A DNA stretch of 64,000 nucleotides from Escherichia coli (GTDB lineage: Bacteria; Pseudomonadota; Gammaproteobacteria; Enterobacterales; Enterobacteriaceae), in assembly GCF_013315695.1 (NCBI RefSeq), contig NZ_CP054353.1; one strand, written 5' to 3'. Within the stretch, counting starts at the first letter, position 1, and every line of letters starts with the position of its first letter. The translations under genes were made by a program, and so were the position numbers. Below are positions 27,562-38,657 of this stretch, in pieces. The notes under the pieces were generated by a model that saw only the letters and a list, made by a program, of their open reading frames with translations, did no database searches and was not told where the DNA came from.

Positions 27562-27960
27562 TATCCGTTGTGGATGGTTCAAAATTGCTTCAATTTTGAA
27601 CCATCCCAGTTTTCATAATGTTCATTTGTTATTATTCCTCTCTATCACTTCTCTCGTCATATCCTAGTATTATCAGTTAGTTAAACACACAAAGAGATCT
27701 GAACATCTTAAATAAGACTATTTAAGATGCATAACTTAGATTCGCAAGATATCTTCTGGTCATTCAAAAACAATTTGCGATATAGATATTCTTATACCAT
27801 GAGATAGTTATCTGGACCGCTCTCAACCATGCAAGATTAAATCAGTGAAACATAATCATATTTGATAACGAGAAATGCATTTTTAAATGCCTTACTCAGA
27901 ATTATAGCAAATACAGATTAATCGCAATTTTTCCCGGCAAAATTACAAAATCATGGTGTA

Positions 27961-28653
27961 TTGACATCATCAATAACCAATGAAATTATGCAATTATATA
28001 CGGATAGGGAGGTTCTTAACATGGGGCTTTGTAGTCGTTATAAAAGTCTTACATGCAATAGTTGCTCAATGCATTGCCAAATAATGCCAGAAGAGTCACC
28101 GCGTTTGCAGTATTGCGCAAACTCGTGTTTTTGTATGTGGCCCGAAGAAAGTTCATATTTTAATCGTGGTGTGGTGGAAGGTATCTTAACAAAAAACCAC
28201 AATGCGAGATTAAGCGGATATATTTTTGTCGATTTTTCAGTAAGTTTTTTACGTCTATTCCTTGAAAAAGACTGGATTGACTATCTTGCAAGTACTGACA
28301 TGGGGATTGTTTTAATCAGCGACCGCAATATGCAATCGTTAGCTAACTACTGGCGAAAACACAACTCTGCAATATCTGCTGTCATATATAATGATGATGG
28401 TCTTGATGTTGCCAATGAAAAGATCAGACAACTATTTATTGGTCGTTATTTATCATTTACCAGAGGTAACACATTAACTCAGATGGAATTCACCATAATG
28501 GGGTATATGGTTTCTGGTTATAATCCATATCAGATTGCTGAAGTTCTGGATATGGATATCCGTAGCATCTACGCGTACAAGCAACGAATCGAAAAGAGAA
28601 TGGGTGGTAAAATCAACGAGTTATTTATTCGTTCACATTCGGTCCAACATTGA
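27961..28653 (+). CDS. yqeH: ETT2-associated LuxR-type HTH regulator YqeH (start codon uncertain)
   Basis: ORF with C-terminal LuxR/GerE-type HTH (EFTIMGYMVSGYNPYQIAEVLDMDIRSIYAYKQRIEKRM); lies in AT-rich DNA. Confidence 0.75.
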   Translation: MTSSITNEIMQLYTDREVLNMGLCSRYKSLTCNSCSMHCQIMPEESPRLQYCANSCFCMWPEESSYFNRGVVEGILTKNHNARLSGYIFVDFSVSFLRLFLEKDWIDYLASTDMGIVLISDRNMQSLANYWRKHNSAISAVIYNDDGLDVANEKIRQLFIGRYLSFTRGNTLTQMEFTIMGYMVSGYNPYQIAEVLDMDIRSIYAYKQRIEKRMGGKINELFIRSHSVQH

Positions 28654-28986
28654 TACTCAACAATCTGCCAGAATCATACTCTGCTTATACGGGCATCTAT
28701 TGAAATGCCCGTATTTTACAAATAAGCAGTAACCCCAAGAGTAAACAACATGGTATTTAAAACCATCACACGAAAAATTCAGAAGCATTACGAAATATGA
28801 ATTTACAAACAATAGTGGCATAAATGTTAATCATGTTAATTTGCGTAAAGTTTTACGTTGCGACATTAAAGCCTCATTTCAATCATTATGATAAATATAA
28901 AATTAATATATATTTATGCCGCAAATACCAATATACTTAGCAAACTATGTGATTTCCATTTCGATTGATTTAGTGTCTATTGACGT

Positions 28987-29796
28987 ATGTACTGGATTAT
29001 TAACGATAATATTGAGTTCTGGCCTGAGCACCGAAAATTAATATCGGTACATAACGCCGATCTTAACGTCGTTCTGACAACGCCAGCCAGTCGTTGTTTA
29101 TCACTTCTACTTGAAGCTTTTCCTGATGTGGTTGCACAACAAGATTTTTTCACCAGAGTCTGGGAAGAAGAAGGTATGCGTGTGCCAACTAACACGTTAT
29201 ATCAGAACATATCCATTATCAGACGCGGATTTCGCGCTGTTGGTGATACCACCCACTCGCTTATTGCAACCGTGCCGAGAAGAGGATTCAAGATTCATAA
29301 TGACATTAACATACAAAATCATGCAATAAACTCTTCAACAGACGCACATACACACAATGCCCCACCTGCCGTAAAAGGTAATGCGGGGTACAAAGAGAGC
29401 ATTGGTAGCGCAAACAATTTCAATAACAAAATCCTCAAACATATAAAAAGTTATCTAATTATGTTGAGCATATTTGCTATAGGCGTATATTCTGCACATT
29501 GGCTATGGAATAATAATCAACCGAAACCATTCTTCAAGGATTACAAGACTGTTGCGGAAATTAATGGCTGCCATTTTAATGTAACAGAAGATACAATTGA
29601 TGGGTTGAAAGAGTTCGATAAATATAAGACACGGATACTGGATTCGGGGATTAACTGTAAAAAATATCCGTGGTTATACTTCCCTCTTGCAAAATCCTCA
29701 CCAGGGATGATTGTTATGGCATGCAATAAAAACTATAACCAACATGAAGTGGCAGGCTGTTTAACCCTGTCTTACCGTGAGGTTAATCGTGATTGA
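28987..29796 (+). CDS. yqeI: ToxR/CadC-like membrane-anchored winged-helix transcriptional regulator
   Basis: 269-aa ORF with N-terminal OmpR/ToxR-type DNA-binding region followed by a single TM segment (IMLSIFAIGVYSAHWLW). Confidence 0.75.
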   Translation: MYWIINDNIEFWPEHRKLISVHNADLNVVLTTPASRCLSLLLEAFPDVVAQQDFFTRVWEEEGMRVPTNTLYQNISIIRRGFRAVGDTTHSLIATVPRRGFKIHNDINIQNHAINSSTDAHTHNAPPAVKGNAGYKESIGSANNFNNKILKHIKSYLIMLSIFAIGVYSAHWLWNNNQPKPFFKDYKTVAEINGCHFNVTEDTIDGLKEFDKYKTRILDSGINCKKYPWLYFPLAKSSPGMIVMACNKNYNQHEVAGCLTLSYREVNRD

Positions 29797-30271
29797 TTAT
29801 AAAAAAAACTTATTATTTATTTTAGTTTTTATCAGTGGGTTTATTCTCTTCATTGTTTACTCTTATACTGCAGAAAAAATGATATATAATGAAACATGCA
29901 CTGCAAATTGGGTAATTTTTAATGACAAGGGGCGAGCAAATCTTACCATCGACTTTATGTATAACAAAAAAAATAAAACAGGAACTGTTGCGTTGAGCGG
30001 AACCTGGCAACAAGGTAACAGAGAAAGTAAATCAATACGGCGAAATATTGAATACACATGGATTGAAAACTATGACACAGCCCATTTAACATCAAAGAAA
30101 GTTAATAAATTTGAGATCATGGATCAAGTCGATGATGATAGACTTGCAGAACTTATTCCTGATTTTTATGTCTTTCCAGAAAAAAGTGTAAGCTATAATA
30201 TACTAAAGCAAGGTAAGCATGCTTTTATTTTGAGTATTGGTAACAGAGCAATAATGCATTGTGCAAGGTAA
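29777..30271 (+). CDS. yqeJ: small membrane-anchored protein YqeJ (possible ToxS-like partner of YqeI)
   Basis: 164-aa ORF overlapping the 3-prime end of yqeI by 20 nt, with an N-terminal TM helix. Confidence 0.65.
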   Translation: MRLIVIDYKKNLLFILVFISGFILFIVYSYTAEKMIYNETCTANWVIFNDKGRANLTIDFMYNKKNKTGTVALSGTWQQGNRESKSIRRNIEYTWIENYDTAHLTSKKVNKFEIMDQVDDDRLAELIPDFYVFPEKSVSYNILKQGKHAFILSIGNRAIMHCAR

Positions 30272-30419
30272 ACTTAAATAGATAACAAAAAGATGGAACC
30301 TCGTTAATCATAAAACAATAAAATTAAATATGCTTGTAGTATATGCCAGTATAAAGCATCAAAGTTTTGATCAACATCTTTCATTTTAGATATCACCTTG
30401 CAATGTAAAATATCATGTA

Positions 30420-37272: not shown

Positions 37273-37287
37273 AACGTTCTCATATGT

Positions 37288-38022
37288 CTACTTATTTTTT
37301 AACCTGATTAAATTAGTTAGAATAGCCCTGTACTTCCATAACAGCCAGCAAGTCGCAATGGACATTAATGCAAGTAAGATAGAAACCGGCATAGTCTTAT
37401 CATAAGCAAAAATAGGTTCGTTAATTTCATATGTTGGTGCTTGTTCAATAATATCTCTTCGTTTTGACAATACGACTGAAATATTCTCATATTGTACGCT
37501 TGCAAAGCTATTAACAATAAATCTCTTAATGTCATTTATTTTTATTTCTGGATTGATATCTTTTTCATATACAGCAAGTACAGAAATATGAATTGGTAAA
37601 GCAGTTTTGCCACTATCACCTGTATCAACATCGTAACTAACATGTACTCTTGAAGAAACAATGCCATCCATAATTTTGAGAGATTGCTCCAAACGCTGTT
37701 CAATAGCAGAATACAATCTTGCTTTTTCCGCTCGTGGAGAGGAAACGAGTGCATCTGCAGGAAACATCTGCGATATTTGAATATCAGGCTTACCCGGGAG
37801 ATTGTAGATTTTTAGCCAATCCACCGCAGAAGCAAAATCCGTTGGTTCTACATAGATTGAAAATCCAATTTTGCCTTGATCCTTCTTCTCAGCATTAATA
37901 TTATGTCTTTGTAAAACAGCAAGGACATCATTAGCTTGCTGTTGATCAAGATGGTTCAGTAATTCCTGCTGCTTGCAACCGCACAACAGCAGGATAAACA
38001 AGAATAATGATATATATTTCAT
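37288..38022 (-). CDS. eprK: T3SS inner-membrane ring lipoprotein (PrgK/EscJ/SctJ family)
   Basis: 244-aa ORF with lipoprotein signal (FILLLCGCKQ), SctJ-like periplasmic region and C-terminal TM anchor. Confidence 0.8.
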   Translation of the reverse strand: MKYISLFLFILLLCGCKQQELLNHLDQQQANDVLAVLQRHNINAEKKDQGKIGFSIYVEPTDFASAVDWLKIYNLPGKPDIQISQMFPADALVSSPRAEKARLYSAIEQRLEQSLKIMDGIVSSRVHVSYDVDTGDSGKTALPIHISVLAVYEKDINPEIKINDIKRFIVNSFASVQYENISVVLSKRRDIIEQAPTYEINEPIFAYDKTMPVSILLALMSIATCWLLWKYRAILTNLIRLKNK

Positions 38023-38351
38023 GAGCGAGTCAACGTCTCAACTGCAGCGACAATTTTTCTTGCTAATGTTCCCACCAATGAAACCTCGACATTATAATTA
38101 AGCACATGATCCTGCAAGACTAATAATTTTTCAGGAGTTAACCCCTTTTTATCAGACCTTAATGCTTGTAACGCATTTTGCTGCCAATTTTCAGTTTGTA
38201 CCGCATAGTTAGCAAAAGCGGAGATCATTTTATCATCCGGGTTATCAAGATTGAGAACCCGGTCATTTAAATCAATAACTTTCGCTTGCTGTATTTCATG
38301 AGCAGCTGATTGCTCAGCTCTATCAATAGGTGGCATATTGCTTACTGACAT
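38019..38351 (-). CDS. eprJ: T3SS inner rod protein (PrgJ/SctI-like)
   Basis: Small ORF between the needle and SctJ genes; track ORF trimmed to MSVSNMPPID. Confidence 0.6.
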   Translation of the reverse strand: MSVSNMPPIDRAEQSAAHEIQQAKVIDLNDRVLNLDNPDDKMISAFANYAVQTENWQQNALQALRSDKKGLTPEKLLVLQDHVLNYNVEVSLVGTLARKIVAAVETLTRS

Positions 38352-38370
38352 AATAAAATCCTTATCCAGT

Positions 38371-38610
38371 TTAGCGGAAGTTTTGTATGATTGCCGAATC
38401 AAGATCTTTATACGCTTTTACAACGTTAGATTGCGCATTTCGATATAATGTATACTCAGCTAATGCACTCTGATATTCGGCAAGGAATTTCGGGTCGGAA
38501 GGATTGGTTGCTAAATCCTCCAACGCTTTTTCAACTTGCTGGTTCAGATCATCAACGCCCTGATCAAATTGTTTGCTGATATCCATAATATAACCATTCC
38601 AATCTGCCAT
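38371..38610 (-). CDS. eprI: T3SS needle filament protein (PrgI/MxiH/SctF family)
   Basis: 79-aa ORF whose C-terminus (YRNAQSNVVKAYKDLDSAIIQNFR) closely matches the needle-protein C-terminus of Salmonella PrgI. Confidence 0.85.
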   Translation of the reverse strand: MADWNGYIMDISKQFDQGVDDLNQQVEKALEDLATNPSDPKFLAEYQSALAEYTLYRNAQSNVVKAYKDLDSAIIQNFR

Positions 38611-38657
38611 AAGTCCTCCTCAATTATTCCTGAAATGTCCACTTGCTACCTTGAGAC

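Follow-up and report, generated by a model that had tools for sequence, protein, structure and literature searches.

In this study we analysed a stretch of Escherichia coli DNA of 64,000 nucleotides (NCBI RefSeq assembly GCF_013315695.1, contig NZ_CP054353.1), referred to as the window in the following, which carries a decayed copy of ETT2, the island for the second type III secretion system of E. coli. An AT-rich block begins directly past yqeG, which ends at position 27561, and positions 27600-38657 have a GC content of 0.339, compared with 0.517 in the rest of the window outside a segment that is bounded by two copies of the insertion sequence IS1. The genes in this block, from yqeH to eprI, are orthologous in order and sequence to ECs3703-ECs3718, which form the left half of ETT2. 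Alignment with the enteroaggregative E. coli (EAEC) strain 042 gave 98.6% DNA identity and was collinear until position 38657, and alignment with strain Sakai gave 96.4%. By this order and identity, the block from 27.6 to 38.66 kb is ETT2 itself, in the form of its left half on the chromosome, and not a relative of ETT2. The remnant consists of the regulators YqeH, YqeI, YgeH and YgeK, the chaperone YgeG, the transglycosylase Pbl and the genes eprI-eprJ-eprK-orgA-orgB without eprH. All features are listed in Table 1.

The left half of ETT2 stops at an IS1 copy in eprH

Collinearity with GN25, 042, Sakai and the closely related genome MSB1_4I ends exactly at 38657, and the first IS1 copy (IS1-A, 38658-39425) follows at the next base. 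The start of eprI lies at 38610 on the minus strand, which leaves a gap of 47 bp composed of a 13 bp spacer and the last 34 nt of eprH. We searched the whole window by tblastn with 16 proteins of the right half of ETT2, among them EprH, EtrA, EpaS, EpaR, EpaQ, EpaP, EivJ, EivI, EivC, EivA, EivE, EivG, EivF and a ghoT/ortT-like protein. Matches in the window were confined to the final 10 codons of EprH (38627-38656) and to the GH15 protein encoded by pkgA, residues 1-477. Apart from these EprH codons, none of the epr/epa/eiv genes of the right half (ECs3719-ECs3735) was found in the window, and the same tblastn searches of the 64 kb found no SctC, SctD, SctN, SctQ, SctR, SctS, SctT, SctU or SctV. 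Of the core injectisome set the window holds SctJ, SctI, SctF, SctK and an SctL-like protein only, and because the nine other components are missing the locus is unable by itself to encode an injectisome. Compared with 042 and GN25, 15,087 bp between eprH and the 3' end of pkgA are gone (042 locus coordinates 25209-40295).

With the exception of ygeF, each gene from yqeH through eprI is full length when compared with the GN25 proteins, at 97.4-100% amino acid identity (tblastn), and the 14 genes that were compared with EAEC 042 have equal length and 0-8 substitutions apiece. In ygeF, alignment with 042 and K-12 revealed one additional A in an A-run at about 31428-31433. The lesion in K-12 is a different one, with 2 bases missing in another A-run; the two lesions are independent, and ygeF was thus inactivated on more than one occasion. 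Two divergent allele types of ETT2 exist, and between 31205 and 37089 the window is 93.6% identical to K-12 and about 98.6% identical to 042. At least 80% of the query 27600-39500, which is essentially the left-half block, was found in 3,074 of 5,426 complete E. coli genomes.

Profile searches assigned most of these proteins to families of type III secretion systems (T3SS). EprI scored above the curated cut-offs of TIGR02105 (106.7 bits, cut-off 41.7) and PF09392 (86.7 bits, cut-off 29.4), EprK above those of TIGR02544 (216.1 bits, cut-off 161.95) and NF011852 (312.7 bits, cut-off 261), and OrgA/MxiK above those of TIGR02555 (229.3 bits, cut-off 118.6) and PF09482 (107.7 bits, cut-off 25). EprJ passed the cut-off of NF038054 (90 bits versus 39) and reached 23.3 bits with Pfam T3SS_basalb_I, which is under the cut-off of 32.4 for that model. 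For YgeH the score with NCBIfam NF008870 was 1058.8 bits (cut-off 800), accompanied by Pfam Trans_reg_C and TPR matches. YgeG lies over the cut-off of PF07720 (TPR_3, 79.9 bits) and under the equivalog cut-offs of TIGR02552 (77.1 versus 104.8) and of the SicA model (121.1 versus 184, E = 4.6e-35). Pbl matched Pfam SLT with 96.2 bits and NCBIfam IagB with E = 1.5e-36, under the equivalog cut-off, and YgeK, with Pfam GerE and Response_reg domains, is an SsrB-like homologue that also stays under its equivalog cut-off. The OrgB-like protein aligned with positions 3-200 of the 210 in NF011850 and scored 58.9 bits (E = 5e-16; equivalog cut-off 278); it had neither a Pfam match nor a sequence match in PDB; its gene sits downstream of orgA, a position that fits OrgB. 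The OrgB-like protein is the weakest family assignment of the set, and the assignments to OrgB, SicA, IagB and SsrB-like proteins are supported at the level of homologues.

The original prediction for this locus had been made by reading the sequence. It had described an AT-rich block with this gene content, order and T3SS families, all apparently intact apart from ygeF, which stops at an IS1 copy 47 bp upstream of eprI. These statements agree with the GC values, with the positions of eprI and IS1-A, with the full-length comparisons to GN25 and 042, in which ygeF falls into two frames, and with the open reading frames (ORFs) and profile searches, where five families lie over curated cut-offs and the others at homologue level. 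Its view that no secretion machine can be made by this locus was borne out by the nine missing Sct components, and the comparison with a complete ETT2 that it had suggested is the one with 042 and Sakai given above, collinear up to IS1. One claim needs an amendment: eprH and the epa/eiv genes had been called absent from the window, and tblastn indeed found none of them as genes, but the last 34 nt of eprH survive.

An inverted right end and a 27.7-kb flanking deletion

IS1-A is one end of a compound rearrangement, consisting of an inversion and a double deletion, and not the end of the island. Together with a second copy, IS1-B, it forms a 100% identical inverted repeat whose members are 7,161 bp apart. 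Both copies have the ends GGTGATGCTGCCAACTTACTGAT and GGTAATGACTCCAACTTATTGAT, contain the insA and insB ORFs and are 99.5-100% identical to annotated IS1A. The segment between them (39426-46586) carries, in this order, ygeV', xdhC, xdhB, xdhA, actS, glyU and pkgA' (primes denote truncated genes) and is reversed with respect to K-12, Sakai, 042 and GN25. Residues 1-477 of PkgA match the GH15 protein of GN25 at 98% (tblastn). As pkgA/GH15 and glyU persist in inverted orientation at 44.86-46.59 kb, the coordinates 27600-38657 do not cover the entire remnant. The original prediction had taken IS1-A as the end of the island; the inverted right end, the 27.7-kb deletion described below and the likeness to MSB1_4I were not part of it.

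Past IS1-B follow the 3' third of uacT and then idi, lysS and onward in normal order. Between the 5' part of ygeV and the 5' part of uacT a second deletion of 27,686 bp (K-12 locus coordinates 20495-48180) took ygeW, ygeX, ygeY, hyuA, yqeA, yqeB, yqeC, mocA and ygfK as well as ssnA, ygfM, xdhD, xanQ, guaD, ghxQ, ygfS and ygfT. Both ygeV and uacT are truncated, so that xdhABC no longer has beside it an intact ygeV, the adjoining sigma-54 regulator gene.

We found no target-site duplications common to the four IS1 flanks (9-mers ccttgagac/gacttaatg and aggcgagaa/cgatgggga). That two IS1 insertions simply recombined and thereby inverted the segment was considered and dropped, since the flanking 9-mers do not contain the direct or reverse-complement duplications that would be expected. 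Judging from the junctions, at least one adjacent deletion followed at each variable junction, and several IS1-adjacent events must have occurred in succession.

Table 1. Features of the ETT2 remnant and the IS1-bounded segment next to it, in window coordinates
Feature	Position	Strand	Description
yqeH (ECs3703)	28021-28653	+	LuxR/GerE-type helix-turn-helix regulator, 210 amino acids, intact; Pfam GerE; 1 substitution
yqeI (ECs3704)	28987-29796	+	OmpR/ToxR-type winged-helix regulator, 269 amino acids, intact; Trans_reg_C 37.5 bits; 2 substitutions versus 042
yqeJ	29789-30271	+	160 amino acids, intact; no Pfam match; protein identical to that of 042
yqeL	30304-30384	-	ORF of 26 amino acids; tblastn 100% to GN25 protein; annotated as yqeL in K-12
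yqeK	30420-30845	-	141 amino acids, intact; no family
ygeF pseudogene	31275-31767	+	163-codon frame, split; two tblastn pieces in different frames
ygeG	31993-32484	+	SicA/LcrH-type TPR class II chaperone, 163 amino acids, intact
ygeH	32819-34195	+	HilA-family regulator, 458 amino acids, intact; 042-like allele
ygeI	34363-34581	+	72 amino acids; no Pfam or NCBIfam match; full length versus 042
pbl	34665-35168	+	IagB-like lytic transglycosylase, 167 amino acids, intact; pseudogene in K-12 and Sakai
ygeK	35187-35819	-	NarL/SsrB-type response regulator, 210 amino acids, intact; protein identical to that of 042; pseudogene in K-12
OrgB-like gene (SctL-type)	36042-36749	-	235 amino acids, intact; frameshifted in MSB1_4I
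OrgA/MxiK gene (SctK)	36691-37272	-	193 amino acids, intact
eprK	37288-38022	-	SctJ inner-membrane ring lipoprotein, 244 amino acids, intact
eprJ	38019-38351	-	SctI inner rod, 110 amino acids, intact
eprI	38371-38610	-	SctF needle subunit, 79 amino acids, intact; protein identical to those of 042 and Sakai
eprH 3' end	38624-38657	-	Stop codon and 10 codons; tblastn match to EprH residues 384-393 at 38656-38627; deletion endpoint
IS1-A	38658-39425	+	768 bp; matches annotated IS1A
ygeV 3' fragment	39426-39907	+	Pfam AAA_lid_14 and HTH_8 (Fis-type) only; K-12 locus 20494 down to 20009, reversed
xdhC, xdhB, xdhA	39947-43609	-	ORFs; reversed alignment to K-12, Sakai and 042
glyU, tRNA-Gly(CCC)	44856-44929	+	ARAGORN; ETT2 insertion landmark, inverted, 6.2 kb off the remnant
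pkgA/GH15 (ECs3736/37)	45163-46586	+	Rightmost ETT2 ORF; Glyco_hydro_15; 474 of 536 codons left, 3' end cut by IS1-B
IS1-B	46587-47354	-	768 bp; inverted, identical to IS1-A
uacT 3' fragment	47355-47992	+	Xan_ur_permease profile positions 249-386 only; K-12 locus from 48181 onward

Sister genomes carry other deletions at the same locus

The nearest complete genomes are MSB1_4I (NZ_LR898874.1), isolated from a human rectal swab in Australia, and AF3 (NZ_OZ547117.1), from a blood culture in the UK. Each of the two records contains at least 40 IS1 matches, which points to an IS1-rich clone. Over the full 64 kb, MSB1_4I differs from the window by 5 single-nucleotide polymorphisms (SNPs) and 1 indel, with identities of 99.983% for 21235-38657 and 100% for 38658-56896, and it has the same inversion and the same IS1-A/ygeV', pkgA'/IS1-B and IS1-B/uacT' junctions. 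The junctions pkgA'/IS1/uacT' and IS1/ygeV' were present at 100% in one complete genome, which is MSB1_4I, and the configuration eprI/IS1/ygeV' was found in none of the 5,426 complete genomes. A Shigella origin had been suspected from best matches of only about 98.9% and from the abundance of IS1; this was dropped, the window being 99.98-100% identical to E. coli MSB1_4I.

The sole structural difference is a stretch of 8,340 bp that adjoins IS1-A in MSB1_4I (MSB1_4I locus 18240-26579). It contains a 3' remnant of eivC, eivI, eivJ::IS1 (a third IS1), a frameshifted epaO, epaP, epaQ, epaR, epaS, a small 'invasion protein' gene, etrA and eprH. The comparison shows one more deletion in the window strain, from the left end of IS1-A and 8,340 bp long, which removed this stretch with eprH except for its last 34 nt. 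The only indel lies at window position 36250, where MSB1_4I has one A fewer; its orgB-like gene is frameshifted there and the window copy is intact. Either the gene has truly decayed in MSB1_4I or its sequence there may contain a homopolymer error. As the frameshift is absent from the window, the window strain is a sister and not a descendant of MSB1_4I.

AF3 shares the eivC'/IS1 junction with MSB1_4I and the IS1/uacT' junction with the window, and its internal endpoints differ: xdhABC and ygeV' are lost, ghoT/ortT is kept and an extra IS1 lies in pkgA (AF3 locus 13149-20713). MSB1_4I and AF3, which are the only carriers of the eivC'/IS1 junction, both keep the eivC remnant, eivI, eivJ::IS1, epaO-S, etrA and eprH next to IS1-A, whereas the window does not. 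The differing endpoints in AF3 are as expected under nested IS1-adjacent deletions.

Outside the island we noted that prfB (50360-51460, minus strand) appears as an ORF of 293 amino acids that lacks the first exon-like frame. The cause is the programmed +1 frameshift that is usual for release factor 2, and the sister genome is annotated likewise.

Discussion

We consider it very probable that the locus is an IS1-truncated left half of ETT2 in an IS1-rich clone, in which the structural genes are probably passengers. In the common ancestor of the clone, IS1 activity would already have removed eivF, eivG (secretin), eivE (gatekeeper), eivA (SctV) and most of eivC (ATPase). In the same ancestor the segment ghoT/ortT-like-pkgA-glyU-actS-xdhABC-ygeV' would have been inverted between two inverted IS1 copies, and the approximately 27.7 kb between ygeV and uacT would have been deleted. 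Most simply read, this ancestor already had the outer IS1 junctions, and nested adjacent deletions then accumulated independently. To judge from the sister genomes, the deletion that defines the window is the latest of these steps and a very recent one, in a lineage in which ETT2 was already dead. The retained genes probably look intact because this deletion is so recent, the sister genome still having the deleted DNA, and not because of selection.

No injectisome would be assembled from what is left at the locus. By analogy with prgHIJK-orgABC, the promoter of eprI-orgB would lie upstream of eprH, in a region that is gone. In a sequence scan, the minus strand from IS1-A to eprI showed no promoter-like site; the number of promoter-like sites in the region was 13, versus 12.6 ± 4.0 in shuffled sequence. 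We also considered that eprI might be driven by a hybrid or outward promoter in the left IS1 end and rejected this, there being no minus-strand site and, by eye, no usable -10 for the TTGGCA in the IS1 end. Since the upstream eprH region is lost and no promoter-like site faces eprI, the operon eprI-orgB is probably silent and its genes are probably untranscribed passengers.

Several points weigh against this view of the locus. As the IS1 flanks share no duplications, we have reconstructed, and not demonstrated, in what order and by what mechanism the IS1 events took place; intramolecular transposition and insertion followed by recombination are both candidate mechanisms in our reconstruction. 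Transcription of eprI-orgB might still start at an internal promoter or enter from IS1 by read-through. The ratio of nonsynonymous to synonymous substitution rates (dN/dS), which is 0.13-0.20 versus the Sakai alleles, shows historical constraint on the retained genes that is compatible with retained function, although it measures divergence between old alleles and has no power for the lineage of the window. Finally, with a view of 64 kb, we infer that the missing genes are absent from the rest of the genome as well.

Could eprI-eprJ-eprK-orgA-orgB instead have been kept by selection, for a role independent of secretion, for example at the envelope or cell surface, with expression by IS1 read-through or from an internal promoter? 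All five ORFs are intact, the historical dN/dS is about 0.13, and reports link degenerate ETT2 to effects on serum resistance, flagella and properties of the surface (PMC6030553; PMC3977695). However, recency accounts for the intactness, with a sister genome that differs by just 5 SNPs in 64 kb and in which the orgB-like gene is already frameshifted. Moreover no promoter-like site faces eprI, and the dN/dS reflects old allele divergence and not the window lineage, and we therefore regard selective maintenance as very unlikely. A different kind of explanation is that the truncation arose in the assembly: the strain would have an IS1 in the 3' end of eprH and the full content of the MSB1_4I type, and the assembler would have jumped to IS1-A and lost 8.3 kb. 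The missing 8,340 bp are indeed flanked on one side by a 768-bp repeat that occurs in at least 40 copies in the sister genomes, and MSB1_4I has three IS1 copies inside 11 kb at this locus. Yet the window crosses two identical IS1 copies, each with unique sequence to its left and right, an indication that the repeats were resolved, and the eprH'/IS1 junction is new and occurs in no sister genome, so that at least one real IS1 event must have taken place at exactly that spot. IS1 is known for recombination and intramolecular transposition, such as would lead from the eprH site to IS1-A. An artefact seems highly improbable to us.

It is also conceivable that the remnant feeds parts to a working injectisome whose other components are supplied in trans, from LEE, the enterocyte effacement locus, or from a second locus similar to SPI-1, the pathogenicity island 1 of Salmonella. 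Nothing in the window speaks for this, and the idea is conceivable only since the view is one of 64 kb. Nine core components are missing from the window, and secretin, SctV and ATPase had already disappeared from the lineage by the time the window deletion took place. We know of no evidence that core components substitute for one another among distantly related T3SS families. Such a supply in trans has next to no probability in our view, and the reading of an IS1-truncated ETT2 with passenger genes is the one that we follow.

Under this reading, any activity of the locus would be due to the regulators that remain; they lie in AT-rich DNA, a kind that H-NS silences. The YgeH of the window has 8 substitutions versus 042 and 23 versus Sakai (O157) and K-12; 042 and O157 differ by 22, which matches the published comparison (PMC4210603). 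The same study reported that YgeH of 042 is required for normal expression of the ETT2 operons, that ygeH is repressed by H-NS, and that the 042 protein can stand in for HilA in Salmonella, the O157 protein being inactive (PMC4210603). With a YgeH nearer to the 042 than to the O157 allele, the window retains, as far as its sequence goes, a regulator of the type shown to be active. In E. coli pathogenic to birds (APEC), mutants without yqeH, yqeI or ygeK were reported to have altered flagella, motility or biofilm (PMC11068852), and degenerate ETT2 clusters were reported to affect virulence-related traits (PMC3977695; PMC6030553). Hence the retained regulators may act on genes elsewhere, such as those for flagella, biofilm and adhesion, and on the basis of this literature cross-talk with other regulons is plausible. 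A more specific possibility, which we think unlikely, is that the truncation cut off the intact 042-type YgeH, along with YqeH, YqeI and YgeK, from every target operon nearby, leaving unlinked targets only (flagella, fimbriae, envelope), or else that eprI-orgB, transcribed by read-through from IS1, gives rise to periplasmic or inner-membrane proteins with a secretion-independent effect at the cell surface. If this were true, the strain and its two sisters would form a natural allelic series that splits the regulatory effects of ETT2 from its secretion effects.

ETT2 and its decay by deletion and insertion of IS elements have been described since 2004. The decay itself is already known, and the exact allele appears to be a strain-level variant that is seemingly unrecorded among complete genomes, of little importance beyond correct annotation. 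Of modest value is the set of three near-identical genomes with three different nested IS1-adjacent deletions around one and the same pair of IS1 copies, which document the stepwise erosion of the island and of about 28 kb of purine-catabolism genes. As a natural allelic series they could help to trace the reported effects on motility, biofilm and serum resistance to particular ETT2 genes.

Comparison with SPI-1 and other forms of ETT2

The window lacks the inv/spa genes, prgH, the translocators and the effectors of Salmonella SPI-1, and therefore cannot function as SPI-1; what it has in common with that island are homologues of hilA, iagB, sicA, prgI, prgJ, prgK, orgA and orgB. With the ETT2 of 042, the reference that is regarded as complete, and that of Sakai (ECs3703-ECs3737) it shares the yqeG-glyU locus and the order from yqeH to eprI. 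It differs from both in that ECs3719-ECs3735 and part of ECs3736 are gone, the right end is inverted and IS1 lies at both breakpoints, and from Sakai also by its intact copies of pbl and the orgB-like gene, both of which are broken there. K-12 MG1655 is similar in having kept the left-half regulators, lost the export apparatus and acquired an insertion sequence at the deletion boundary. Its endpoint, however, lies inside orgA (ygeO) at IS2H, followed by ygeP-ygeQ and glyU, and eprK, eprJ and eprI are gone, as the original prediction had stated for K-12 (an endpoint associated with IS2 and no eprIJK) and as the annotation ygeO/IS2H/ygeP-ygeQ-glyU confirms. Furthermore pbl, ygeK and ygeN are pseudogenes in K-12, whereas their counterparts in the window are intact and the deletion ends in eprH, where IS1 lies.

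Strain H27 was considered as a further case of IS1 at this eprH site and set aside, as it has a different isoform with the structure yqeI/IS1/eprI. The unrelated E. coli 2452 (locus 5233-7062) also has yqeI/IS1/eprI, with yqeJ-eprJ deleted and eprH and the epa genes kept, roughly a mirror image of the window. Cheng et al. reportedly sorted the deletion isoforms of ETT2 into types A-K in 2012.

We compared the published isoforms as they are given in reviews, and one identical to the window may exist in the primary isoform papers. These reviews catalogue 10-11 isoforms (PMC11068852; PMC3977695). Loss of ETT2 genes through IS insertions and through deletions at the right end or in the middle is described repeatedly, the regulators often being kept and reportedly important for phenotype (PMC11068852; PMC3977695; PMC6030553); examples are a truncated ETT2 in O78 (PMC6030553) and right-end deletions of 4.99, 5.68 and 8.74 kb in APEC (PMC11068852). 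Compared with the APEC isoforms, the window combines a loss of 15.1 kb with the glyU-xdh inversion and the 27.7-kb flanking deletion.

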